A stretch of 64,000 nt of DNA from positions 48,333 to 112,332 of the forward strand of contig JAZQWB010000030.1 in the NCBI GenBank assembly GCA_045632145.1, read 5' to 3'. Below the pieces are notes generated by a model. It saw only the letters and a program-made list of their open reading frames with translations, was not told the DNA's origin and made no database searches. Of the stretch, positions 396 through 19,623 are shown in pieces. This DNA comes from Eubacteriales bacterium. Its GTDB lineage: Bacteria > Bacillota > Clostridia > Oscillospirales > CAG-272. Position numbers and translations under genes: made by a program. Each line of letters starts with the position of its first letter. The first letter of the stretch is position 1.

Positions 396-403
396 TCAAA
401 TTA

Positions 404-431
404 AAATGCACTCTTCGGAGTGCATTTTTTT
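404..431 (+). terminator. rho-independent terminator
   Basis: aaatgcactc-ttcg-gagtgcattt hairpin followed by a T-run. Confidence 0.8.
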
Positions 432-622
432 GTTTGCTATATATATTTTTTTGAAGGATTAAGCAAAACCTATGTGCAATATTTACAAAAACAATTAAAC
501 ATATTTAGAATATTAGTCAATTTACTTTTTTAAAAATATGTGTTATTATATTATATATATAATAATTTTTTGCACGTTTTATTTAAAATTATTATTTAAA
601 ATTCTAAACGGAGGATTTTATC

Positions 623-3600
623 ATGGCAAAAAAACCAAATTGTACTATAAGATTGCTCATTGTTGCGATAGCAATAATGCTTCTTATAGGCATCACATCG
701 GTTGTAACCTTTGCTGCGGATAATGATGCGTCAAGCAACGGAATTGTTTCAGTAAGTTTATCGCTTGATGACAGCATTGTCGTTAAAATTCGCACCACTG
801 CAACCAATGATGATGGAGCTTTCCTGAAGATCAGTCATAATGGAAAGGTCAGCAAGATTACCACTAATTACGGAGGAGTATTCTCATACGTTGACATTGC
901 TCCTCAGAATTTTGGTGATGAGCTTACCGCCGTATTGTATGCTAAAGACGGTAGTCAGATCGGTGCTCCTGTTACATTCAGTGTAAAGTCTTATTTGAAG
1001 GCACTTCTCGCTCTTGATTATGAGAGCAGCGGTTGTGATACCGAATTAGAGTACAGCGCAATGCGTGAGCTTGCGGTAAATCTGCTTAATTACGGTGCAG
1101 CAGCACAGACTTACACGGGTCATAAGGCTGACACGCTTGTGAATGCAGATCTCAGCGACGAGCTTAAGGCTCTTGCCGGCGCTCCTATATCCGTAACAAC
1201 CACTGACAAGGCTGTTAACGGTGATGCTTGGGTAGGCGCAGGTGTTCGTTTTGACTTCAGACTTGGTATTTACTATGTATTTGAGGCAGCATCGCTTGAC
1301 GGAGTTACTGCTACCATTAATGGTGTGAATGTTATTCCCGAGATTTACGATGCAAGTAAAAATCAGTATATCATCCGTTACAGCAGCTTTGGTGCTGATG
1401 AGATGAACAACGTTTTTACGGCGAAGCTTAATATTGGTGGAGCAGAGCAGACCTATTCTTATAGTATCAAGTCCTACGTTGCCGCAAAGGGTGGAGATGA
1501 TTCCGCACTTGCAAAGCTTGTTAATGCTGCTTATACATACGGATATGCGGCGGTTGCTTACGTTGGAGATATCATCTCTCTCGATCCTACCTTCGAAACT
1601 CCCGGTTACGTTGGTATTGATAGCAAGGGATATGATTTTACAGGCTCCAAGTATGAGGCTATGATTCTTCCTGCTCTTAATTATCAGGATTACACTATGA
1701 ATACAGTTGCTACCGCATCTGCTAATCCCAATGCTAAGGCAAGATTTACCTTAACTAAGGGTGCTTTCACTTACTCTGTTGACGTGACTGTTGATGACTG
1801 TATCAGAGTAAACGACAAGTATTATAGCATTTATGATTACGAGGCTCTTAACTCCGAGGGCATTGAGGTGACCTATAACAAGGATACAGGCTATACCTTC
1901 AGAGCAAAGACCGCACAGAATCTTACCTATCTTGCAGCTTACGGTAATGCGCTTACCGTAATTGGTGATATTACTATCACACGCGATACTGATGATTTGG
2001 TTATTGCTAATCAGCTTAATATCGGTACTGAAACCGAAAAGGCAACTGTAACCGTTAACAATGCCGCAGGTGCAACCCGTGCTATGAGATTTAATGACGG
2101 CGCAGGTCTTTATGTTGCGGAAAACAGCACACTGTCCATAACAAAGGGTGGTTCTTATTCTATCATTGGATATTCACAGGCTACATCTATCGTAGTTGAC
2201 GGTACTCTTAATACTCAGGGTATTATCAGACTTGAGAAGGGTGTTGTTCTTAACGAGAATTATGAGTATGGATTTGTTCCTGCACTCTTCGTTAGAAAGG
2301 GAACAGTAAATATTGACGGCGGTCAGGTTCTTTCCAACTCTATTCAGGTCGGTAGTGAGAGAGAGGGCTTTAAGGGTAATCTTATTATCACTCAGAATGC
2401 TGCAGGTGATAGAGCAGGATCCGGTGTTAGCGGTATTGTTTTAAATAACACTATCAGCTATGAAAACCGTACGTTAGCTCTTAGATACGTATTTGCAAAC
2501 GGTAAGGTATCTCTTACTGATAACACCACCGTTGGTCTTACAGCGATGGACGTGAGAACTAACAAGAGCGCTTATGTTGATTTTGGTTCCGGTATTGATG
2601 TTACCACCACGGGCGGCTACGTATATCTTGTAGGTACTTGGTCTGTTGCAGCAGATTACCGTTATGCTATTCATACCGATGCGAAGTTCACCGGTCCTCT
2701 TAGCGGTAATGCGTTGGTTTGTGTAGGTTATGCAACAAGCAATTACTTTATTAATTATACTGACGTAGAGCTTAAGGTTGACGGCGAAACCAAGCTTGTT
2801 CGTGTTGCTAGTTATACAACAGGATCTGCAAAGAGAAATATGGCAACCTCCTTGCTCACCGATAATGGTGATGGAACCAAGAGTATTGCTGATATTTCTG
2901 TTACAAGTGGCGAGTATCTTACCACAGCAGATGCACCTCTTGCCCTTGGCAACCAGGGCAACTTCAACAAGGCTGTATATAATGGAACCGAGATTTATTA
3001 TAAGGCTATTGGCAGTCATACTCATGCTACTGAAACCACAGTTGATAAGGTTGATTCTACCTGTAAGGTAGAGGGTCATGAGGCATACTATGTATGTGAG
3101 TGTGGCAAGCTCTTCTCTGATGAGGCTTGCACAAATGAAATCGCTGCTCCTGCTGTTATTCCTACAAAGGAACATACAGTGGTTGTTGATGCCGCTGTTG
3201 CTCCCACATGTAGTGAAAACGGACTTACTGAGGGTAAGCATTGTAGCGCTTGCGGTACTGTAACCGTACCTCAGAATATCGAGCTTGCACTTGGTCACCT
3301 TGATGCAAACTCCGACTTCGTTTGCGACCGTAACGGTTGTGGTGCTAAGCTTTGCACCAGTCATAATGAGGTTGTTGATGCCGGCAAGGACGCGACCTGT
3401 ACTGAGGACGGTCTTACCGAGGGCAAGCATTGTTCTATCTGCGGCGAGATCACTGTAGCGCAGACCGTTATCCCTTCTCCCGGTCATAACGAGGTTACAG
3501 ATGCGGCTGTTGCTCCTACCTGTACATCCACAGGTCTTACTGAGGGGAAGCATTGTTACAGATGTAATGAGGTGTTCACAGAGCAAACGGTTATCGATGC

Positions 3601-5224
3601 TATTGCTCACAAGAATGCAACATATGTAGAGCTTGTTGATGCAAGCTTCGAGAGCGAGGGCGTTGTTGCTCACTATGCATGTCCTGATTGCGGTAAGTAC
3701 TATCTTGACGTTGAGCTTACAAAGGAGATTTCTTCTCCCATACTTCCTAAGCTTGATACTGTTAAGTATACTACCGCAACAACAAGACCTGCTTTTGCTA
3801 CAACTCTCACACTTGATACCATATTCACTCTTGTCAGTGACGAGATCGAGTATTCTGTCCCCGTTCAGGTTGACAGCATGCTTGTTGTTGATAGAGGCGA
3901 GGGTGAAATCGTTGTAACAAAGTATGACTACCAGAAGCTCAACACCGATATTGTAACCGTAACTTACGATGAAGTAACCGGTTATACATACTCTGTAGCT
4001 GAAGGCCAGACCGAAACCGGTATTACAGGTATTGGTATCCGTTCTGCGGGTAGAGATCTTACTATCACCGGTTCTGTTGAGATTATTGGTGCTGCAAGAT
4101 TTGGTACTAATACAAATCTTATAATCGGTACAGACGATAAGCCCGCTCACGTTAAGTTTGAAGTTACCACAGCAGATACAAACGGTCTTGGTATTTGGGA
4201 CGGTGCTGACCTGACAGTAAACAAGGGAAGTACTCTTGATGTAAAGAATGTTAGTGACAACACTATTTACATTAATGCAAAAGCATCGATAATTACTATT
4301 GCAGGAACATTGACCTCAAACAGCACTATTAATTCCAACGGTTGTACATTTAATGTAACATCTACTGGTTCGGTTGTTACTAAGCAATCCTTCTATAATA
4401 ACGGAGATACAACTCTTAATGTTGACGGTTACTTTGAGGCAACCTACCTTTACATTAAGTCTAATGGTTATGTTACTGTTGGTGGTGAATTGGTTCTTAA
4501 AGCCGATGGAAAGACAACTACAATTGCCGGAGCTGCAGCAGCAAACTCTGACTATGAATATGGCTTCAGACCTCGCCTTCTCGTTTTGGGTACTTTAACT
4601 GCAAACGGCGTTATCAACTGTAACTCCATTCAGGTTGGTAGTGAAAAGGATAATAGATCCGGAGTAATGAATCTTAAACACAGCGGAAATAACGTTGTTG
4701 TTATTAACAAATCTGATGTTAGAATTGTTTTTGCTAAGGGCGAAGTAAATCTTCTCAATACTGCAACCGGAAAGTGTGCTTTTGATGTTGGTAACCAGAA
4801 TGCCACTACCAATGTAGTGATTAAGAGCGGAATGACATTCAATACAAACGTAAATTACGGAAGTATCATAGGTGAATGGAAGAACGGAACCTATAGCGTT
4901 TATATTGAGGACGGTGTAACCTTTAACGGCTCAGTTAATAACTTTACCGCTATGTCAAGCAACACTAAGACAATGTACTTCTTCAGAACAGAAACCGTAA
5001 CTATTGATGGAGTTGAAAAGGCGGTTACTCTTGCATGCTCCAATCCTTCTACAGGAACAGCGGGTTACTATTCTTACGATGCTATCAATAGTATGAACCC
5101 TGTAGTGGCAGGTGCAAATTACGTTTCTACATCTGAAACCGCAACCTACGGTGATCTCGGTAGCTTCATCAAGGCTACCTACACCGATGAGAGCGGTACT
5201 GTTCACACAATTTATTATCAGTAA
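623..5224 (+). CDS. 1,533-aa secreted repeat protein of unknown family (two paralogous large modules flanking His/Cys repeats)
   Basis: GGAGG sits 8 nt upstream of the ATG. Signal peptide ...LLIGITSVVTFAADN. Internal duplication (YEYGF[VR]P...NSIQVGSE occurs twice). No anchor motif recognised. Confidence 0.9.
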   Translation: MAKKPNCTIRLLIVAIAIMLLIGITSVVTFAADNDASSNGIVSVSLSLDDSIVVKIRTTATNDDGAFLKISHNGKVSKITTNYGGVFSYVDIAPQNFGDELTAVLYAKDGSQIGAPVTFSVKSYLKALLALDYESSGCDTELEYSAMRELAVNLLNYGAAAQTYTGHKADTLVNADLSDELKALAGAPISVTTTDKAVNGDAWVGAGVRFDFRLGIYYVFEAASLDGVTATINGVNVIPEIYDASKNQYIIRYSSFGADEMNNVFTAKLNIGGAEQTYSYSIKSYVAAKGGDDSALAKLVNAAYTYGYAAVAYVGDIISLDPTFETPGYVGIDSKGYDFTGSKYEAMILPALNYQDYTMNTVATASANPNAKARFTLTKGAFTYSVDVTVDDCIRVNDKYYSIYDYEALNSEGIEVTYNKDTGYTFRAKTAQNLTYLAAYGNALTVIGDITITRDTDDLVIANQLNIGTETEKATVTVNNAAGATRAMRFNDGAGLYVAENSTLSITKGGSYSIIGYSQATSIVVDGTLNTQGIIRLEKGVVLNENYEYGFVPALFVRKGTVNIDGGQVLSNSIQVGSEREGFKGNLIITQNAAGDRAGSGVSGIVLNNTISYENRTLALRYVFANGKVSLTDNTTVGLTAMDVRTNKSAYVDFGSGIDVTTTGGYVYLVGTWSVAADYRYAIHTDAKFTGPLSGNALVCVGYATSNYFINYTDVELKVDGETKLVRVASYTTGSAKRNMATSLLTDNGDGTKSIADISVTSGEYLTTADAPLALGNQGNFNKAVYNGTEIYYKAIGSHTHATETTVDKVDSTCKVEGHEAYYVCECGKLFSDEACTNEIAAPAVIPTKEHTVVVDAAVAPTCSENGLTEGKHCSACGTVTVPQNIELALGHLDANSDFVCDRNGCGAKLCTSHNEVVDAGKDATCTEDGLTEGKHCSICGEITVAQTVIPSPGHNEVTDAAVAPTCTSTGLTEGKHCYRCNEVFTEQTVIDAIAHKNATYVELVDASFESEGVVAHYACPDCGKYYLDVELTKEISSPILPKLDTVKYTTATTRPAFATTLTLDTIFTLVSDEIEYSVPVQVDSMLVVDRGEGEIVVTKYDYQKLNTDIVTVTYDEVTGYTYSVAEGQTETGITGIGIRSAGRDLTITGSVEIIGAARFGTNTNLIIGTDDKPAHVKFEVTTADTNGLGIWDGADLTVNKGSTLDVKNVSDNTIYINAKASIITIAGTLTSNSTINSNGCTFNVTSTGSVVTKQSFYNNGDTTLNVDGYFEATYLYIKSNGYVTVGGELVLKADGKTTTIAGAAAANSDYEYGFRPRLLVLGTLTANGVINCNSIQVGSEKDNRSGVMNLKHSGNNVVVINKSDVRIVFAKGEVNLLNTATGKCAFDVGNQNATTNVVIKSGMTFNTNVNYGSIIGEWKNGTYSVYIEDGVTFNGSVNNFTAMSSNTKTMYFFRTETVTIDGVEKAVTLACSNPSTGTAGYYSYDAINSMNPVVAGANYVSTSETATYGDLGSFIKATYTDESGTVHTIYYQ
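3010..3700 (+). repeat. five divergent in-frame His/Cys repeats (H-x6-12-C-x8-9-HC-x2-CG, e.g. HTVVVDAAVAPTCSENGLTEGKHCSACG)
   Basis: Repeated peptide motif read from the translation of 623-5224. The DNA copies are diverged. Confidence 0.75.
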
Positions 5225-5242
5225 TGCGAAAGGAGTACTAAA

Positions 5243-6628
5243 ATGAATAGAATAACTAAAGTTTTATCAGCGATTGTTATAATTTTAATACTCGTCGCAT
5301 TTGCGGGTATGATCTACCTTAATGGTGGTTTTGATTTTAGTCACACTTGTGAGAGCGTCTGCTCCGAGTGCGGCAAGTGTACCGACGTTTCTTGCACCGA
5401 AACTGCTTGCGCAGAAAAGTGCGAGGGACATCAGGTTACACCTCCTGCACACATCTGTGAGAGCGTTTGCTCCGAGTGTGGTAAGTGCACCGATGCAGCT
5501 TGTACTGAATCTGCTTGTGCAAACAAGTGTGAGGGTCATCAGGTAACACCTCCTGCACACACCTGTGAGAGCGTTTGCTCCGAATGTGGTAAATGCACCG
5601 ATGCCGCTTGTACTGAATCTGCTTGCGCTAGCAAGTGTCAGGGACACGGTCCTCATGACTGTGAGAGCATTTGTAACGATTGTCAGAAATGTACCGATCT
5701 TGCTTGTACACATAGTGAGTGTGCAAACAAGTGCGATGGACATAATACCAATAATTCGGGTTATGCTTATCAGACATATCAGCTTAATCTTATGTCCTTC
5801 AACATTCGTACTTTTACTAACAATGATACAGGTAATACTCACTGGGATAAGCGTAAGGATGCACTTGTAAGCTTCCTCAACAATTCCGAGGCTGATATCA
5901 TTGGTATGCAGGAAGTTACAAAGACACAGTTCGAGTATATTCAGGCAAATCTTGCCGGCAATTACACTGCTCTTAATTTCCCCAGACAGGGTGGCTCAAA
6001 TCCCGAGGGTCTTTCATTCATTTATGATTCCACTAAGTTTGAGTTTGTTTCCTCTGAAAAGTACTGGCTTTCGGAGACTCCTGAGGAGCAGTCTTACGGT
6101 TGGGGTGAATCCTATTATCGTATTGCGGTAGTTCTTGTTCTCAGACACATAGAGACAGGCGAGATCGTTAAGTCTATAAACACCCACGGTCCTCTCCTTG
6201 ACGAGGCTAACGTAAAGGCATACGAGCTTATTATGGAAAGATCTGTAAACGAGGGTGATCCCTTCACATTCCTTTGTGGTGACTTCAATGCTACACCCGG
6301 TAATATCGGATACGTTGCTGTTGCTGAGGAGCTTCAGGACTGCCGCGTAAGCGCAGATTATAGCTCTGCTCGTGATCATGTAACCTTTACAGGTTGGGGT
6401 AGCTATGTTGACGGTGAAACACCTGATCATATCATCGACTTCTGCTTTGTATCCAAGGGCGATAATGTTGACGTTAAGTCCTACGAGGTTCGCACCGACA
6501 GATGGGGCGACGGAAATTATTATTCCGACCACTATGCAGTACAGACTGTTGTAGAAATCACCTACAAGAGTACCATTCCTTCGCAGGGAGGCAACGGCTT
6601 CGACGGTGAAATCGATACAGCAAAGTAG
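5243..6628 (+). CDS. membrane-anchored endonuclease/exonuclease/phosphatase (EEP) family protein with N-terminal Cys-rich repeats
   Basis: AAAGGAG RBS. N-terminal TM helix VLSAIVIILILVAFAGMIYL. EEP motifs GMQEV, CGDFNATP and YSDHYAV. Four CESVCSECGKCTD..C....C...C.GH repeats. Confidence 0.9.
   Translation: MNRITKVLSAIVIILILVAFAGMIYLNGGFDFSHTCESVCSECGKCTDVSCTETACAEKCEGHQVTPPAHICESVCSECGKCTDAACTESACANKCEGHQVTPPAHTCESVCSECGKCTDAACTESACASKCQGHGPHDCESICNDCQKCTDLACTHSECANKCDGHNTNNSGYAYQTYQLNLMSFNIRTFTNNDTGNTHWDKRKDALVSFLNNSEADIIGMQEVTKTQFEYIQANLAGNYTALNFPRQGGSNPEGLSFIYDSTKFEFVSSEKYWLSETPEEQSYGWGESYYRIAVVLVLRHIETGEIVKSINTHGPLLDEANVKAYELIMERSVNEGDPFTFLCGDFNATPGNIGYVAVAEELQDCRVSADYSSARDHVTFTGWGSYVDGETPDHIIDFCFVSKGDNVDVKSYEVRTDRWGDGNYYSDHYAVQTVVEITYKSTIPSQGGNGFDGEIDTAK
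5342..5743 (+). repeat. tandem in-frame 108-bp (36-codon) repeat: 3 close copies plus 1 divergent shorter copy
   Basis: Copies start at 5342, 5450, 5558 and 5654. Copies 2 and 3 are near-identical at the DNA level. Confidence 0.9.
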
Positions 6629-6642
6629 TTAAATAACACAAT

Positions 6643-6680
6643 AAATCGGAAGGGACTCGCGCCCTTCCGATTTATTTATT
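6643..6680 (+). terminator. rho-independent terminator of the EEP gene
   Basis: aaatcggaaggg...cccttccgattt stem followed by tatttatt. Confidence 0.8.
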
Positions 6681-6681
6681 A

Positions 6682-6716
6682 TAAAAAAGCACCCTGCAAA
6701 TCTGCAGGGTGCTTTT
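6682..6716 (-). terminator. rho-independent terminator of rpsR (hairpin usable in both directions)
   Basis: gcaccctgca-aatc-tgcagggtgc, with a T6 run on the minus strand. Confidence 0.8.
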
Positions 6717-6736
6717 CTCTCTTGTAAAACAAGAAA

Positions 6737-6994
6737 TTAGTTAGAAATGTAGGGAAGAAGTGCCATCTGGCGTGCTCTCTTGATAGCTACGGTGAGCTGT
6801 CTCTGGTGGAGAGCGCAGTTGCCGCTAACACGTCTGGGGAGAATCTTAGCTCTCTCAGAAGTGAACTTTCTAAGCTTAGCGATATCCTTGTAATCGATCT
6901 CGGTAACCTTATCCTGGCAGAAGATGCAAACCTTCTTTCTTCTGTGGTTCTGACGGAATGCAGGACGATTATTGTTTTCCATGAGTTTTATCAC
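6737..6994 (-). CDS. rpsR: 30S ribosomal protein S18
   Basis: RRKKVCIFC...IDYKD...[42 protein letters not shown]. Confidence 0.95.
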
Positions 6995-7065
6995 CTTTCC
7001 GACTCACGATTTCTATATTGCACCTACCACAGTGAGCCTAGTGGCAGATGGACGAGTTACCCAAA

Positions 7066-7518
7066 TTAGAAGGGAAGGCTCTCGTCGCCGGGAATTTCTT
7101 CGAACTCAGCACTGCTGGTGCTGTTGAAAGAGGGAGTACCGTATGCAGCGGGAGTGTAGCCCTGCTGAGCTCTCTCACCTGCCTGTGCTGCTGCGGGCGC
7201 GCCGAAGCTAACCTCGTCTGCAACAACCTCGGTAACGTATCTCTTCTGGCCGTTGTTGTCAGTCCAGTTTCTTGTCTGAATGCTACCGCATACGATGATG
7301 CTGGAGCCCTTCTTGAAGTAACGGGAAACAAACTCAGCCTGCTGACGCCATGCAACTATGTTGATGAAATCAACCGACTGCTGACCCTGATCAGCCTTGG
7401 AATAACGGCGGTTAACACCGATAGAGAAGCTACATACAGAAAGTCCGCTAGTAGTCTGCTTAAGCTCGGGATCTGCCGTCATGTGGCCCATAAGAATGAC
7501 CTTATTTAAATCTGCCAT
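7066..7518 (-). CDS. ssb: single-stranded DNA-binding protein
   Basis: MADLNKVILMGHMTADPELKQT... OB fold and acidic tail ...GDESLPF. The start at 7518 has an AAAGGA RBS, whereas the longer ORF start at 7539 has none. Confidence 0.93.
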   Translation of the reverse strand: MADLNKVILMGHMTADPELKQTTSGLSVCSFSIGVNRRYSKADQGQQSVDFINIVAWRQQAEFVSRYFKKGSSIIVCGSIQTRNWTDNNGQKRYVTEVVADEVSFGAPAAAQAGERAQQGYTPAAYGTPSFNSTSSAEFEEIPGDESLPF

Positions 7519-7575
7519 AGTTATATGCCATCCTTTCAATAAATAGTATGTGGTATTACCACTTTAATGCGTGCA

Positions 7576-7941
7576 TTAAGCCTCGGTTACTTCAACCTCA
7601 GCGGTAGCTGCGGGAGCTTCAACAACTTCCTCAGCCTTAGCTGCCTTCTCGATCTTGGTGGTGGTCATGTAACGAAGAACACCTTCGGTAATGCCAAGCA
7701 CACGCTCAAGCTCAAGAGGGAAGCTGGGTTCGCTCTTATAAGAAACAAGCACATAGTATCCTTCGGTTACGTAGTTGATAGGATATGCGAGTCTGCGCTT
7801 GCCCCACTCGTTAACAGTAACGTCAGAGCCGTTATCGTTAATGAGGTTAACGAACTTCTCAACAGTAGCAGTGATTACATCCTCAGCAAGGTTGCCGCTT
7901 ACTACGAAGAGAGTCTCGTAAGAACAAATCTTCTTTTCCAT
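7576..7941 (-). CDS. rpsF: 30S ribosomal protein S6
   Basis: YETLFVV...WGKRRLAYPI motif; first gene of the rpsF-ssb-rpsR operon; AAAGGAGG RBS. Confidence 0.95.
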   Translation of the reverse strand: MEKKICSYETLFVVSGNLAEDVITATVEKFVNLINDNGSDVTVNEWGKRRLAYPINYVTEGYYVLVSYKSEPSFPLELERVLGITEGVLRYMTTTKIEKAAKAEEVVEAPAATAEVEVTEA

Positions 7942-8020
7942 CTGAATTATACCTCCTTTTGGTCTTTTGGCTGTCTATAGACAGCAAGGGGTTGGACACA
8001 GTTGTCCAAACTACCAGAGT

Positions 8021-8049
8021 ATTATAGCACAAGTTTTTTTGTTTGTCAA
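8021..8049 (-). promoter_or_regulatory. sigma-A promoter of rpsF operon (TTGACA-17-TATAAT, TGn extended -10)
   Basis: The minus strand reads ttgaca aacaaaaaaacttgtgc tataat. Confidence 0.7.
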
Positions 8050-8076
8050 TAGTTAAAATAAATATTTTTTATATAG

Positions 8077-8105
8077 TTGATTTTTTTGAAAAAATATAGT
8101 ATAAT
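8077..8105 (+). promoter_or_regulatory. sigma-A promoter of ispE (TTGATT-17-TATAAT)
   Basis: ttgatt tttttgaaaaaatatag tataat, about 30 nt upstream of the ATG. Confidence 0.6.
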
Positions 8106-8135
8106 ATTTAAGATAAATGCAAAAGGAGTACCGAT

Positions 8136-8969
8136 ATGCAGGTTAATGAGAAGGCATATGCCAAAATAAACCTCTTTCTTGACGTGACAGAGCGTAGGCA
8201 AGACGGCTTTCATAATATTGTAAGCGTTATGCAGTCTGTTAGCCTTTGCGATACTATTTTGTTTAATGCCAGTTGTAGCGATACTACCTTGATTCGAATC
8301 ACGTCTGATGACCCCGGTCTGCCTCTTGATGAAGACAACCTTATTTATAAGGCGGCAGAGAAGTATCTTTCTTACTACGGTATCTGCGCAGAGGTCGATA
8401 TTCATCTGACTAAGCAAATTCCTATTGGTGCAGGTCTCGGTGGCGGATCATCCGATGCCGCCGCTACTCTTCGAGCTCTTGACAAGGTGTTTAATTTATC
8501 TAGTGGAAACGATCTGCTGCGATTGTCTGCAGAAATTGGTAGCGACGTTCCTTTCTGCCTTATTGGTGGACGTGCTTTGTGTACGGGACGAGGCGAGCAT
8601 CTCGAAGCTATAAAGGAGTATCCTATAAACCATTTTGTTATTTCAATAGGTAAGGAAAAGGTTTCTACTCCTAAAGCTTATAGGACACTTGATGAGAAAT
8701 ACAGCAACTTTGACGGTAGTGATTATCATCCTGTTCAGTATAGCGGTCAACTTTATAACATTTTTGAAAGTGTTACCGGCATCAATGAAGTTGATATAAT
8801 CAAAGAAATAATGACTAAAAACGGGGCAGAATCAACCTTAATGAGCGGAAGCGGTCCTTCCGTCTTTGGAATTTTCAGGAATTCCGATGATGCAAAAAAG
8901 GCCGTCGAGATTTTAAGATCAAGCGGTTTTTCAGCCTTCGAATGTCATTCTGTAAGGGAGAATTTATGA
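8136..8969 (+). CDS. ispE: 4-diphosphocytidyl-2-C-methyl-D-erythritol kinase
   Basis: KINLFLDV...RQDGFHNI...IPIGAGLGGGSSDAAATLRAL (GHMP kinase motif). Confidence 0.92.
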   Translation: MQVNEKAYAKINLFLDVTERRQDGFHNIVSVMQSVSLCDTILFNASCSDTTLIRITSDDPGLPLDEDNLIYKAAEKYLSYYGICAEVDIHLTKQIPIGAGLGGGSSDAAATLRALDKVFNLSSGNDLLRLSAEIGSDVPFCLIGGRALCTGRGEHLEAIKEYPINHFVISIGKEKVSTPKAYRTLDEKYSNFDGSDYHPVQYSGQLYNIFESVTGINEVDIIKEIMTKNGAESTLMSGSGPSVFGIFRNSDDAKKAVEILRSSGFSAFECHSVRENL

Positions 8970-9715
8970 TTTACGATCTTCTCGCCCCCTACTATGATGC
9001 TATTAATGCAGACATAGATTACGTTAAATGGGCAGATTTTATTGAAAAAATATTTAACAAAGAATGCAATAGCCGTCCGGATCTTGTTCTTGATCTTGGT
9101 TGTGGCACAGGAAAAATGACCCTTGAGCTTGCTAAACGTGGCTATGATATGACAGGCATAGATTATTCTCCCGAAATGCTTGACATCGCACGTAGTGAGG
9201 CAGAGGAAAAGCGGGCTGACGTGCTTTGGCTTTGCCAGGATATGCGTGAGTTTGAGCTTTACGGTACGGTTGATGCAGCCGTGTGCTGCCTTGACGGTAT
9301 CAATCACCTCGAGGATGAGGATGATCTTATCAGCTGCTTTAAGTTGGTACATAATTATCTTATTCCCGACGGTATCTTCGTATTTGATATTAATGCTAAA
9401 TACAAATTTGAGAACATTTATGCCGACAACACCTATGCTATGGAGGAAGAAGGCGGAATGTGCGTTTGGGAAAATTATTATGATCCCGATAGCAAAATTT
9501 GTGATTTCTATATTACATTATTTAAAGAATGTGCCGACGGTAGATATGAGAGATATGATGAAACTCAGAGCGAAAGAATGTACACTCTTGATGAAATGCG
9601 ATCGGCTCTTGAAAAATGTAATTTAGAGTTTATCGGAGCTTACGGGGATTTTGATTTTACACCCGGAAGCGATGAGTCCGAAAGAATATATATTGTTGCA
9701 AAATGCAGAAAGTGA
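8966..9715 (+). CDS. class I SAM-dependent methyltransferase
   Basis: VLDLGCGTGKMTLELAKRGYDMTGIDYSPEMLDIA motif. Start at 8966 (MIYDLL) follows an AAGGGAG RBS. Confidence 0.85.
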   Translation: MIYDLLAPYYDAINADIDYVKWADFIEKIFNKECNSRPDLVLDLGCGTGKMTLELAKRGYDMTGIDYSPEMLDIARSEAEEKRADVLWLCQDMREFELYGTVDAAVCCLDGINHLEDEDDLISCFKLVHNYLIPDGIFVFDINAKYKFENIYADNTYAMEEEGGMCVWENYYDPDSKICDFYITLFKECADGRYERYDETQSERMYTLDEMRSALEKCNLEFIGAYGDFDFTPGSDESERIYIVAKCRK

Positions 9716-9720
9716 TTATT

Positions 9721-10617
9721 ATGGAAAACAAGAACATACCTACATCAACAATCCTTCGCGCAATGACCAGAGACGGTTCTGCCCGAATTTTAGTTATTAA
9801 TTCTCGCAAAATTGTTAATGATGCGATTTCTTATCACAAGACAACTCCCACCGCGTCTGCAGCTCTCGGTAGACTTGTAACCGCTACTTCTATGATAGGC
9901 ACCATGCTCCCCGAGAACGGTGATAGCGTAACTATCAGCATTCAGGGTGACGGTGAGGCAGGCAGACTTCTTACAGTAGCTGATTACTTCGGTAACGTGA
10001 AGGGATATATCGAAAATCCTCTTGTTGATCCCCCAAAGAAGCCAAACGGTAAGCTTGACGTTGGTGCAGCTATCGGTAACGGTACAATCTCCTTTGTTAG
10101 ATCTGTCGGTGCTATCGATCCCCAGATCGGTACTATCGAGCTTGTAAGCGGTGAGATTGCTGAGGATATTGCAACCTACTTTGCCAAGAGTGAGCAGATT
10201 CCTACTGTTCTTTCTCTTGGTGTACTTGTTGATACTGATTACTCCTGCCTTGCCGCAGGCGGTGTTCTTATCCAGCTTATGCCTTTCCCGGATGATGAGA
10301 CTGTTGATCTTATCGAGAGAAATGCTGCTGATCTCGTTAATATCTCCCGTCACTTTGCTGCGGGATTAACCAATGAGCAGATTATTGAGATCGCAATGCG
10401 TGATATTCCTTTCGACATCTTCGATACCATCGACGTTTCTTACAAGTGCGATTGCTCTCGCAAGCGTATGTTTGAAAAGATTAAGAGCCTTGGTGCAAAG
10501 GAAATCGCCAAGATGCTTGATGAGCAGGAGGAAGAGGGCAAGGCACGTGAGCTTACAGCTATCTGCCGCTTCTGTAATAGCGAGTACACATTCTCCGAAA
10601 ATGAGCTTTTAAAGTAA
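9721..10617 (+). CDS. hslO: Hsp33 family redox-regulated chaperone
   Basis: C-terminal zinc centre YKCDCSRKR...CRFCNSEY. The start at 9721 was chosen over 9703, which lacks an RBS. Confidence 0.9.
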   Translation: MENKNIPTSTILRAMTRDGSARILVINSRKIVNDAISYHKTTPTASAALGRLVTATSMIGTMLPENGDSVTISIQGDGEAGRLLTVADYFGNVKGYIENPLVDPPKKPNGKLDVGAAIGNGTISFVRSVGAIDPQIGTIELVSGEIAEDIATYFAKSEQIPTVLSLGVLVDTDYSCLAAGGVLIQLMPFPDDETVDLIERNAADLVNISRHFAAGLTNEQIIEIAMRDIPFDIFDTIDVSYKCDCSRKRMFEKIKSLGAKEIAKMLDEQEEEGKARELTAICRFCNSEYTFSENELLK

Positions 10618-10626
10618 TAATAAATG

Positions 10627-10667
10627 AAATCCTCGGTACGTATAATTGACCGAGGATTTTTATTTTT
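10627..10667 (+). terminator. rho-independent terminator of hslO
   Basis: aaatcctcggt...accgaggattt followed by tttatttttt. Confidence 0.8.
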
Positions 10668-10678
10668 GGAGAAACGGT

Positions 10679-11197
10679 ATGAATTTTGAAGCTATGAATA
10701 TGTTTTTATCAGCAGAGAATATCAAAAAACATCTGGAGCACCTAAGAACCCTAAGGCTTAAGTATTCTGTGTTGGAAAAAAGTGTTCCCGAAATTGTCGG
10801 ACGGGATATGTTAGAAATCTCAAAACTTCGCATATCCAGTCAAATACGCGAAGAGGCAACTAGACTATTGTGGAATATACGATCACACGAGCTGTTTTTT
10901 GATTCCTTCACCGACAGACCAACCTGGACTAATAAGGAAATTTCAAGAGAAAAGCTGATGTACGATATATTGCAGATGTCTTACGACAAGGATTATGGCT
11001 TTATTTATATATATAACGATAGAAATGGAAGAATAAAAATCTCCCATTCTATAGAATATGACGGGGCTTTTGTTACTTATACTCCGGGTCTTTGCATTGA
11101 TGTTTGTGAGCACGTCTATTTTTGTGATTACGGATTTAAAAGGGATAGGTATGTAGGCGGAGCCTTAAGTTATTTAAATACAGGTAAACTGACTTGA
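10679..11197 (+). CDS. short divergent Fe/Mn superoxide dismutase-like protein
   Basis: IDVCEHVYFCDYGFKRDRYV resembles DVWEHAYYLxYQNRRPDYI, and RSHELFF resembles NHSLFW. The start at 10679 follows GGAGAAA. The longer ORF start overlaps the terminator. Confidence 0.5.
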   Translation: MNFEAMNMFLSAENIKKHLEHLRTLRLKYSVLEKSVPEIVGRDMLEISKLRISSQIREEATRLLWNIRSHELFFDSFTDRPTWTNKEISREKLMYDILQMSYDKDYGFIYIYNDRNGRIKISHSIEYDGAFVTYTPGLCIDVCEHVYFCDYGFKRDRYVGGALSYLNTGKLT

Positions 11198-11253
11198 CAA
11201 ATAATCAATAAAAGGGTATAATAATTGTAAAAACAATTAAAAGGATGAAGAAA

Positions 11254-12486
11254 ATGGCTATATTAAAAGGTAATGCTGTTGTCGGTCAGTCCGGCGGTCC
11301 TACTGCGGCAATAAATGCAACGCTTGCAGGTGTTATCAGAGGCGCTCTCGCTGCCAAAGATACTATTCCTACCATTTATGGTATGAGAAACGGTATTGAA
11401 GGCTTCCTTGAAGAAAAGCTTGTAAACTTAAGCGAGGTGTTTGCTGATGAAAATAAGCTTTCTACACTTGAGCTTACCCCATCTGCAGCACTCGGCTCAT
11501 GCCGTAAAAAGATGAAGTCACCCGAGGATGATCCCGAGACATATAATAGACTTATCCAGCTTTTCAAAAAGTATGACATCAGATACTTCTTCTATATCGG
11601 CGGTAATGACTCTATGGATACCGTTTCGAAGCTTTCTCGTTATGCTATGGATCATGACTATGAGTTAAAGGTTGTTGGTGTGCCTAAGACTATTGACAAC
11701 GATCTTATGGCTACCGACCACACACCCGGATTCGGTTCTGCCGCAAAATTTGTGGCGGTTACGATAAAAGAGATCCTCCGTGACGTGTCTGTATATCGGA
11801 TGAAGGCGGTTACTATCGTTGAGATTATGGGTCGCGATGCAGGTTGGCTTACTGCTTCCGCATCTCTTGCAGGACTTACAGACGGCAAGGGCGCAGATCT
11901 TATTTATCTCCCTGAGGCTGAGTTTGACCCCGAGAAATTTCTCTCCGATATCGAGAGAATTCAGAAGGATCATCCAGCGGTGCTTGTTGCTGTATCCGAG
12001 GGCATTAGATTTGCCGACGGTAGATACGTAGGTGAGGGACTTGGTGGACGAAAGATCGATGCCTTCGGCCACGTTGCACTTTCCGGTGCAGGCAGAGTGC
12101 TTGAGGGACTTGTGAAGGAGCATCTTGGCTGCAAGGTAAGATCTATTGAACTTAACCTTCCTCAGCGCTGTGCCTCTCATCTTGCTTCCAAGACAGACAT
12201 CGAGGAGTCTGTTGGTGTTGGCAAGGCTGCTGTTATTGCGGCCACAAATGGAAAAACAGGAGTAATGATGACCATCAATAGAAATGAAGGGGAGGATTAT
12301 TCTGTTTATTATGACTCTGCAGACATCTTTGGCATTGCAAACGGAGTTAGATCTGTACCTAAGGAATACATTAATAATGAAGGCAACGGTGTAACCGAGG
12401 AGTGCGTTAAGTATCTTGCGCCCCTTATTGTAGGTGAGGTTTCACCCACTTACATAAGCGGCTTGCCAGATCATCTAGTATTATAA
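11254..12486 (+). CDS. 6-phosphofructokinase (long type, possibly PPi-dependent)
   Basis: GGPTAAINA, YIGGNDSMDT, VGVPKTIDNDL, MGRDAGWL. Asp at the Gly104-equivalent position (GGNDS) correlates with PPi use in characterised enzymes. Confidence 0.88.
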   Translation: MAILKGNAVVGQSGGPTAAINATLAGVIRGALAAKDTIPTIYGMRNGIEGFLEEKLVNLSEVFADENKLSTLELTPSAALGSCRKKMKSPEDDPETYNRLIQLFKKYDIRYFFYIGGNDSMDTVSKLSRYAMDHDYELKVVGVPKTIDNDLMATDHTPGFGSAAKFVAVTIKEILRDVSVYRMKAVTIVEIMGRDAGWLTASASLAGLTDGKGADLIYLPEAEFDPEKFLSDIERIQKDHPAVLVAVSEGIRFADGRYVGEGLGGRKIDAFGHVALSGAGRVLEGLVKEHLGCKVRSIELNLPQRCASHLASKTDIEESVGVGKAAVIAATNGKTGVMMTINRNEGEDYSVYYDSADIFGIANGVRSVPKEYINNEGNGVTEECVKYLAPLIVGEVSPTYISGLPDHLVL

Positions 12487-19512: not shown

Positions 19513-19533
19513 AGGCAAGAAAATAAAATAATG

Positions 19534-19613
19534 CTTATCAAGAGTGGCGGAGGGACTGGCCCTATGAAACCCGGCAACCTGTTTTTTCAAGGTGCTAAAT
19601 CCCGATAGATGAG
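19534..19613 (+). promoter_or_regulatory. SAM-I (S-box) riboswitch aptamer, unusually short (no P4 hairpin evident)
   Basis: CTTATCAAGAGTGGCGGAGGGACTGGCCCTATGAAACCCGGCAACC...AAGGTGCTAAATCC..AGATGAG matches the S-box core; located upstream of metK. Confidence 0.9.
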
Positions 19614-19623
19614 TTATGCTCTA

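Follow-up and report, generated by a model that had tools for sequence, protein, structure and literature searches.

A stretch of 64,000 nucleotides (nt) of contig JAZQWB010000030.1, from an Eubacteriales bacterium of the lineage CAG-272 and called here the window, carries close to its left end two co-directional genes, one for a giant surface protein of 1533 amino acids (aa), the other for a 461-aa protein with a phosphoesterase domain of the EEP family. They are separated by 18 nt and form a bicistronic-looking, terminator-bounded unit. The original prediction, made from the letters of the window, proposed that the two genes encode a surface system consisting of an exposed enzyme and a huge partner. 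As judged from homologous loci, the family of the large protein is specifically linked to extracellular phosphoesterases, in a conserved manner, and the second gene encodes a predicted metal-dependent phosphoester hydrolase. The two genes and the parts of their products are the following (aa numbers are those of each protein).

623-5224, plus strand: gene of the giant surface protein (open reading frame, ORF, of 1533 aa)
623-715, plus strand: Sec-type signal peptide of the giant protein, aa 1-31 (hydropathy, conserved cleavage site)
716-1657, plus strand: N-domain, aa 32-345 (~315 aa), predicted as two beta-sandwiches with long-helix caps
1658-3022, plus strand: module A, aa 346-800 (~455 aa), predicted all-beta and beta-solenoid-like, family-specific
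3023-3727, plus strand: Cys/His repeat array of type A, aa ~801-1035, about five to six Zn-ribbon-like units
3728-5221, plus strand: module A', aa 1036-1533, a second copy of module A within the protein
5243-6628, plus strand: gene of the EEP phosphoesterase (ORF of 461 aa)
5261-5317, plus strand: N-terminal hydrophobic segment of the EEP protein, aa 7-25 (hydropathy)
5342-5743, plus strand: Cys/His repeat array of type B, aa 34-167, four 36-aa units (regex matches)
5792-6592, plus strand: EEP catalytic domain of the BT3783-type clade, aa ~184-450 (Pfam; nearest PDB entries 3g6s, 3l1w, 3mpr and 4c1r)

Homologues of the giant protein give full-length matches at 43-96% identity. Seventeen loci of the family were collected, with members sampled from 96% down to ~38% identity over the N-domain. 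One locus (L014) ends at a contig edge and was left out, which leaves 16 evaluable loci. A lack of conserved co-occurrence in related genomes had been named as the refutation of the original prediction, and it was not observed: an EEP gene lies at most 1.4 kb from the gene combining N-domain and module A in 14 of the 16 loci (the window, L001, L002, L003, L004, L007, L009, L010, L012, L013, L017, L089, L091 and L092), in different species and next to different flanking genes, among them rpsB-tsf, HD/rpsR, an integrase, ligA, AraC and GH3. The EEP gene is present in two copies in each of L007, L009 and L010 and in five copies in the L091 cluster, and it stands upstream of the family gene in L012. 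Over the N-domain, identity among these paired loci spans 38-77%. As a background, 144 loci carrying the N-domain only were inspected (1.43 Mb); two of them gave an EEP match, weak in both cases (Fisher p ~1e-14, without correction for phylogeny). The pair thus recurs in several species, between different flanks and above background, which is our operational definition of a conserved two-gene cassette. A metagenome scan added one further fragment of the family and otherwise background loci only, and all-versus-all clustering of ORFs found no third conserved component in the 17 family loci.

In L011, a secreted phosphoesterase with LamG and Metallophos domains is encoded directly upstream of the family gene, on the same strand, in place of the EEP. 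Protein P0132, from L089, is a fusion of Metallophos, N-domain and module. Because another phosphoesterase substitutes for the EEP in one case and is fused to the family domains in the other, a functional link within the pair is suggested. Replacement of the EEP by the fusion at L089 was considered and rejected: tblastn reveals a 373-aa EEP downstream, after a second family gene, and the locus is counted among the EEP-linked ones.

In the larger clusters, L089 and L091, EEP paralogues number up to five and are accompanied by AraC regulators, an SGNH esterase and a sugar-phosphate-isomerase-like TIM barrel; by their gene content these clusters resemble glycan-utilisation loci. The L091 cluster (1115-12372) is headed by an AraC gene and holds five EEP paralogues, one family gene and an AP_endonuc_2 gene (xylose-isomerase-like TIM barrel); it looks like an expanded version of the gene-pair system. 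A lipoprotein of ~500 aa from this cluster is also found in L010 and L089.

Two further observations were made on these loci. L007 and L092 belong to one assembly, GCA_054265695.1, and L014, L016, L017 and L019 to one metagenome-assembled genome (MAG), RGIG5059; several paralogous genes of the family or of N-domain proteins thus occur in single genomes, and the family is multi-copy in some species. In addition, ORFs of 38-50 aa recur in several loci at the positions below, each directly behind a family or EEP gene, whose stop codon they often overlap. The window, with its gap of only 18 nt, has none of them. They may represent a conserved micro-protein or a gene-calling artefact.

L007 6121-6270 and 7729-7875: tiny ORFs
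L089 6363-6479 and 8637-8753: tiny ORFs
L091 5852-5986: tiny ORF
L092 5574-5726: tiny ORF

Domains of the large protein

The giant protein starts with MAKKPNCTIR-LLIVAIAIMLLIGITSVVTFA, followed by AD after the predicted cleavage site. As expected of a Sec signal peptide, the n-region is positively charged, the h-region is hydrophobic and the cleavage site has small residues. Hydrophobic 19-mers extend over aa 4-34, and the end of this segment (VTFA, then AD) falls on a FAAD/FAxE site that is conserved in the family alignment. No LPXTG motif, the mark of sortase-anchored proteins, was found in the giant protein.

Alignment with 11 homologues defines a conserved core made of the signal peptide, a highly conserved N-domain and one module. 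Family members of about 800-870 aa stop after module A and lack the type-A array; the array and the second module were added only in the lineage of the window. Module A' is a duplicate, since aa ~1040-1470 align with aa ~348-729 at 27% identity in a self-comparison (E 1e-13). The giant size and the Cys arrays of both proteins are additions specific to certain lineages, and the pairing does not depend on them. The huge partner of the original prediction therefore exists in the window, with its 1533 aa, but the conserved partner is only ~800 aa long, N-domain plus one module.

The repeat unit of type A, at aa ~810-1025, reads T-C-x10-H-C-x2-C-G ... G-H, with a C-x10-HC-x2-C spacing. Zinc-ribbon families of Pfam match it at sub-threshold scores only, and no PDB sequence matches it even at E 10. 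More generally, nothing above threshold was found for the giant protein in Pfam, in NCBIfam, among PDB sequences (E up to 10) or in Pfam searches of each sub-region. For the two proteins and the four collections Pfam, NCBIfam, PADLOC and PHROGs, the sole above-threshold match is that of PF03372 on the EEP. That the large modules and the repeats could not be placed in a named family, as first reported, is thus upheld by Pfam, NCBIfam, PDB sequence and Foldseek searches, and the domains of the partner appear to be without known relatives.

Module A was modelled with AlphaFold (AF2) as an all-beta fold (predicted local distance difference test, pLDDT, 87; predicted template modelling score, pTM, 0.88). 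Its C-terminal half consists in the model of long antiparallel strands, which are atypical of simple beta-helices. Foldseek found nothing significant, the best PDB match having E 0.1 and a TM-score of 0.20, and the best match among the viral models of BFVD E 0.09. The sub-threshold list is a mix of tailspike depolymerases and beta-helix adhesins. Similarly, the Pertactin family of Pfam scores 15.5 bits on module A', under its cutoff of 22, so membership of the right-handed beta-helix families was not established. The likeness to beta-helix and solenoid proteins (pertactin, FHA/EtpA, the SRRP binding region, phage tailspikes) lies in the predicted all-beta, solenoid-like shape; these proteins stand at the top of the sub-threshold Foldseek and Pfam lists of the module, none significantly (Foldseek E at least 0.1, TM-score ~0.2).

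Conservation separates the module from the N-domain. Among 25 diverse members, the invariant or near-invariant positions of module A are only Gly, Leu and Tyr, that is, Gly and hydrophobic residues, whereas the N-domain retains many invariant polar residues. Modules A and A' share two motifs, YEYGFxP and SxQVGSE, which most family members have but which are not universally conserved. Because no polar residue is invariant in the 25 members, a structural, binding or scaffold role of module A is favoured over a catalytic one.

The N-domain is modelled by AF2 with high confidence (pLDDT 91, pTM 0.88) as two beta-sandwiches, each with a long-helix cap. Against the PDB, Foldseek found no fold relative, only generic matches to tandem Ig/FN3 domains with TM-scores of at most 0.2. 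An exhaustive HMMER search retrieved 5,916 representative proteins at E <= 1e-3, and 2,811 at E <= 1e-10. A scan of species-representative genomes gave 422 copies, all in uncultured gut or rumen Clostridia; hosts include Oscillospiraceae, Faecousia, Ruminococcus and Lachnospiraceae. The N-domain is therefore not specific to the gene pair, but a terminal module that is very abundant in Clostridial surface proteins. In the top 140 matches it is N-terminal in 61 proteins and at the extreme C-terminus in 79, never internal, and none of the 140 has an LPXTG motif or a C-terminal transmembrane segment. It is associated with BspA-type leucine-rich repeats, InlB B-repeats, MBG, LamG, Metallophos and cohesin domains. 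Proteins P0189 to P0200, of ~480 aa, join a cohesin (PF00963) to the N-domain, which suggests, at the level of domain composition, a link to cellulosome-type anchoring scaffoldins.

SLH, CWB2 and GW are terminal modules by which Firmicute surface proteins are anchored non-covalently to the wall, and terminal placement in the absence of other anchors is the usage pattern of such modules. Because the N-domain is always terminal, occurs without LPXTG or C-terminal transmembrane segment and has adhesin- and cohesin-type partners, it is probably a non-covalent surface-anchoring or glycan-binding module. Like SLH, CWB2 and GW, it ends secreted multidomain proteins devoid of other anchors and is joined to leucine-rich repeat, cohesin, enzyme or adhesin modules. 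Unlike them, it has no sequence or fold similarity to these modules, and its wall binding is only putative.

The phosphoesterase and its probable anchor

The EEP protein starts with MNRITK, which precedes its hydrophobic segment and provides two positive charges, R3 and K6. Because of this N-terminus, an N-in signal anchor is favoured; the alternative is a signal peptide, either uncleaved or cleaved after AFA. The orthologues of L009, L010, L017 and L091 carry lipoprotein signals instead of a transmembrane-type N-terminus, and in EEPs of other lineages a lipoprotein signal and a Gly-rich linker replace the Cys-repeat stalk. The extracytoplasmic location first proposed for both products is maintained, because hydropathy finds one N-terminal hydrophobic segment in each, signal-peptide-like in the giant protein and better read as an N-in anchor in the EEP, because orthologues have lipoprotein signals, and because the Cys stalk is common to other exo-enzymes.

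This stalk is the array of type B. Its unit reads H-x-C-x3-C-x2-C-x2-C-x4-C-x4-C-x3-C-x-G-H, with 7 Cys and 2 His per copy, and the copies are at aa 34-63, 70-99, 106-135 and 138-167; at the DNA level the array is a tandem repeat with a 108-nt period (5342-5646). The two Cys/His arrays are thus of two different types, as the original prediction had noticed. The type-B repeat has no match in Pfam, nor among PDB sequences even at E 10. Copy number goes from 0 to 9 across EEP homologues. Within one cluster at 90% identity (P0001, P0155, P0159 and P0162), lengths of 425, 461 and 533 aa correspond to 3, 4 and 6 copies, so repeat number varies between closely related strains. The repeat is also fused to SGNH/GDSL, DUF4886 and NAGPA enzymes. 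Given this variation, these fusions and the replacement by a lipoprotein signal and Gly linker in other lineages, the array would be an exchangeable stalk or spacer.

Small stand-alone ORFs made of type-B repeats only occur upstream of the gene pair in L002 (5206-5439) and L004 (6854-7715). They could be pseudogene remnants or independent Cys-repeat mini-proteins.

PF03372 (Exo_endo_phos) matches aa 184-430 of the EEP protein with 49 bits, for a cutoff of 24.5, over profile positions 1-225 of 225. The catalytic motifs noted originally are all in place, and the residues N187, E224, H315, D347, N349, D399, D429 and H430 are invariant in 37 homologues, in an alignment that goes down to ~30% identity; the active site is intact.

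Among EEP clades, that of BT3783 is closer than any other. A profile of the EEP family matches it with E-values from 5e-50 to 3e-43 (3g6s 5e-50, 3l1w 2.5e-45, 3mpr/4c1r ~1e-43), and the single sequence matches the structures of this clade at about E 5e-21 to 2e-12. The next groups in the profile search are Angel2 (6e-15), Nocturnin and TDP2 (1e-10 to 1e-13) and, down to 1e-7, CCR4-type enzymes. Sphingomyelinases follow at 2e-5 to 2e-3 (beta-hemolysin 2e-5, nSMase2 6e-4, SMase C 1e-3), and nucleases score alike (ExoIII 1e-4, DNase I 3e-3). With the single sequence, nSMase2 gives E 0.035. The original prediction had left the choice between a nuclease, a phosphatase and a sphingomyelinase-like enzyme. 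A phosphatase agrees with the BT3783-type assignment, but nuclease and sphingomyelinase are weaker by more than 30 orders of magnitude in E-value. Gene 2 is thus placed by sequence among the BT3783-clade EEP enzymes, as a newly found member of an already known clade with an intact active site.

BT3783 (3MPR/4C1R) is the mannosyl-6-phosphatase of the yeast-mannan polysaccharide utilisation locus (PUL) of Bacteroides thetaiotaomicron. It dephosphorylates mannan and N-glycans, and was assayed with phosphorylated sugars and a phosphorylated high-mannose N-glycan (PMC4978465). In our literature search it was the only characterised member of the clade. The EEP of the window belongs to the same sub-clade as BT3783 and its uncharacterised structural-genomics relatives 3G6S (Bacteroides) and 3L1W (Enterococcus), with the same set of catalytic residues. 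The window EEP and BT3783 are both extracytoplasmic enzymes of gut bacteria. The former, however, comes from a Gram-positive host, is tethered to the membrane by way of a Cys-rich repeat stalk and is paired with a large protein of unknown family, outside any SusC/D PUL with GH76, GH92 or GH38.

Boundaries and surroundings of the gene pair

The signals around the two genes, and the terminator of the converging operon, are the following.

403-435, plus strand: left boundary of the locus, formed by the intrinsic terminator of the HD/dGTPase-like gene that lies upstream
482-511, plus strand: candidate sigma-70-type promoter TTTACA-18-TAGAAT (consensus scan only)
521-549, plus strand: candidate sigma-70-type promoter TTTACT-17-TATTAT with extended TG (consensus scan only)
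610-615, plus strand: GGAGGA, Shine-Dalgarno sequence of the giant gene, separated by 7 nt from the ATG at 623 (direct reading)
5230-5235, plus strand: Shine-Dalgarno sequence AAGGAG of the EEP gene, within the 18-nt gap (direct reading)
6640-6688, plus strand: right boundary of the locus, formed by the intrinsic terminator of the gene pair itself
6685-6716, minus strand: convergent rpsR terminator, outside the unit (-26.2 kcal/mol, then U6 on the minus strand)

The left hairpin (403-428), with an 11-bp stem, has a stability of -14.4 kcal/mol (z -5.8) and a U7 run behind it; the right one (6640-6676) reaches -21.8 kcal/mol (z -7.4) and has a U-rich tail. Both combine a stable, GC-containing hairpin with a U-rich tract, as Rho-independent terminators do. 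With the ORF coordinates exact and the two hairpins strong, the description of the locus as a terminator-bounded, co-directional unit was accurate, and so was that of its flanks: upstream lies an ORF with an HD_assoc domain (Pfam), in agreement with a dGTPase-like gene, and on the other side the genes of S18, SSB and S6 are on the minus strand (rpsF-ssb-rpsR). Ahead of the giant gene, in what is its 5' leader or its promoter region, lies a 13-nt AT-rich perfect tandem repeat, TTATTTAAAATTA, in 1.9 copies (579-603).

Every other ORF of the interval overlaps the gene pair and is a shadow ORF. One of them runs antisense wholly within the giant gene (2474-4150, minus strand, 558 aa); its translation is of low complexity, with much Cys, Ile, Ser and Thr. 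Codon bias of the sense frame, which has conserved homologues, is its most likely origin. Base composition of the locus did not differ from that of its flanks, and no island signature was found. No paralogue of either gene was found within the window. Neither protein matched the PADLOC or PHROGs models, that is, no membership of known anti-phage or phage protein families. The sole match of an Rfam scan is a SAM riboswitch (RF00162) at 19532-19615, plus strand, with 66 bits for a gathering score of 44.4, unrelated to the gene pair.

Proposed function and its alternatives

The account that we tentatively favour is that the pair is a module for phosphoester hydrolysis at the surface of uncultured gut and rumen Clostridia, in which the partner is not catalytic but serves for binding or as a scaffold. 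The catalytic domain of the EEP would be tethered to the membrane by its N-terminal hydrophobic segment, and held away from it by the Cys-rich repeat stalk; in other lineages, a lipoprotein anchor and a Gly-rich linker would serve as tether and spacer. The secreted partner would probably attach non-covalently to the cell surface via its terminal N-domain. Its beta-solenoid-like module, duplicated here around an array of Zn-ribbon-like spacers, would probably bind a polymeric substrate or dock the EEP. Together, the two proteins would seize a phosphorylated polymer outside the cell and cleave its phosphoesters, which would either lay the polymer open to further degradation or supply phosphate. 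The polymer would most likely be a phosphoglycan, for instance fungal phosphomannan or a teichoic-acid-like polymer. In this scheme the physical or functional coupling of the two proteins, and the spacer role of the Cys arrays, are what we infer from the loci. A phosphorylated glycan is the leading guess for the substrate because of the BT3783 clade, the glycan-locus-like clusters of L089 and L091, and the other enzymes that share the stalk.

A stronger version joins two claims, that the N-domain is an unrecognised and abundant non-covalent wall anchor and that partner and EEP make up a dedicated phosphoglycan-stripping complex. The N-domain would then be a functional analogue of SLH or CWB2, devoid of a Pfam model and of a solved fold relative. 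The complex would strip phosphate or phosphodiester decorations from fungal phosphomannan or from the teichoic-acid-like polymers of neighbouring bacteria, as a Gram-positive counterpart, built of entirely new binding domains, of the de-phosphorylation carried out by the Bacteroides mannan PUL. We regard it as unlikely that both claims hold together.

Several points weigh against the account that we favour. All data come from MAGs and metagenome contigs. The anchoring role of the N-domain and the binding role of the module are read from position and conservation only, and the classification of module A as a beta-helix is tentative, the Foldseek matches to its model being non-significant. L011 and L015 have no adjacent EEP, and L015 has nothing comparable; conversely, arrays of EEP paralogues occur with no family gene in view (L005, L006, L008). 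The substrate is deduced from one characterised clade member, BT3783, and the substrates of the next-nearest EEP clades are nucleotides or nucleic-acid ends. Finally, no mannan-specific glycoside hydrolase stands beside the pair: none of GH76, GH92, GH38 and GH125 was found in the 17 family loci, which are therefore not mannan-utilisation loci, and only GH3 is nearby, in 3 loci.

One alternative, which we hold to be doubtful, is that the partner is itself a novel beta-helix glycan depolymerase, with the EEP as its accessory de-phosphorylating enzyme. BT3783 is accessory to mannanases in the Bacteroides mannan PUL, an arrangement to which the pair can be likened. Tailspike depolymerases, pectate-lyase-like proteins and alginate epimerases lead the sub-threshold Foldseek list of module A; the adhesins Awp1, EtpA, SRRP, FHA and Ag43 are, however, in the same list, and no fold or sequence match to any lyase or hydrolase is significant. 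YEYGFxP and SxQVGSE are kept between A and A' and in most members, yet no polar residue of module A is conserved at 90% or more in the 25 diverse members. AraC, SGNH esterase and GH3 genes in the cluster context would also suit a depolymerase.

Nucleotide and nucleic-acid substrates are a serious rival to a phosphoglycan, because the next-nearest EEP clades act on such substrates. The EEP would then be a surface nuclease, or a nucleotide, 2',3'-cyclic or 3'-phosphatase, serving in scavenging, and the partner would bind extracellular DNA or RNA, or act as a biofilm adhesin; we judge this possible but rather unlikely. Surface nucleases are known among EEP enzymes, for example those of SpnA/SsnA type at the cell surface of Firmicutes, and Angel2, Nocturnin, TDP2, CCR4 and PDE12, the next-nearest solved clades, all act on nucleotide or nucleic-acid phosphoesters. 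Furthermore, the Metallophos family, which provides the substituting phosphoesterase, includes surface 5'-nucleotidases and cyclic phosphodiesterases. The window EEP does match the MnuA model NF045851 (E 0.0011), but with 19.1 bits against a cutoff of 185, and the ExoIII-type models TIGR00195 and TIGR00633 reach 13 bits for 182.6 and 12.5 bits for 99, so it belongs to none of them. ExoIII and DNase I, at about 1e-3 to 1e-4, are far from the 1e-50 of the BT3783 clade, and no OB-fold or other nucleic-acid-binding domain was detected in either protein of the pair. The MnuA- and SpnA/SsnA-type surface nucleases of Firmicutes and Mollicutes resemble the EEP of the window by a surface-anchored EEP fold on a Gram-positive-type envelope, and differ from it by their family models, by OB-fold domains and by LPXTG.

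The two genes could also be neighbours devoid of functional coupling. A surface or adhesin protein and a phosphate-scavenging exo-enzyme, each independent of the other, would then share only regulation or neighbourhood. Clustering of surface-protein genes is common, and both the EEP arrays without a family gene and the two family loci without EEP would fit. Against this, the genes stay adjacent in members as distant as 38% identity, although flanking contexts and anchors vary, and adjacency is found in only 2 of the 144 background loci; the substitution and fusion of Metallophos point to a functional link. We consider uncoupled neighbours improbable. Last, a host- or membrane-directed factor, in which a sphingomyelinase- or phospholipase-C-like EEP is delivered by a giant adhesin, is very improbable: the partner is adhesin-like in overall design and EEP-fold sphingomyelinases match weakly (nSMase2 with the single sequence, beta-hemolysin with the profile), but these matches are more than 35 orders of magnitude weaker than those of the BT3783 clade, the hosts are commensal gut and rumen Clostridia known from MAGs, and the cluster context is carbohydrate-locus-like.

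The overall design of the tentatively favoured module, a surface-tethered exo-enzyme with a binding or scaffold protein, is already known. The partner family, the N-domain and both repeats are un-modelled and, in the literature that we searched, undescribed, and no paper was found on the gene pair. For uncultured gut and rumen Clostridia, most of the surface proteome lacks annotation, and the locus defines in it a reproducible two-gene module made of an undescribed partner family and a BT3783-clade phosphoesterase. It exposes un-modelled building blocks of three kinds, namely the terminal N-domain that thousands of surface proteins carry, a beta-solenoid-like module and two Cys-rich spacer repeats. 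Should the N-domain prove to be a wall anchor, thousands of hypothetical proteins could be given a localisation. If the pair acts on phosphorylated glycans, the small soluble ectodomain of the EEP would provide an experimental handle, and glycan de-phosphorylation, so far represented by one Bacteroides enzyme, would extend to the Firmicutes.

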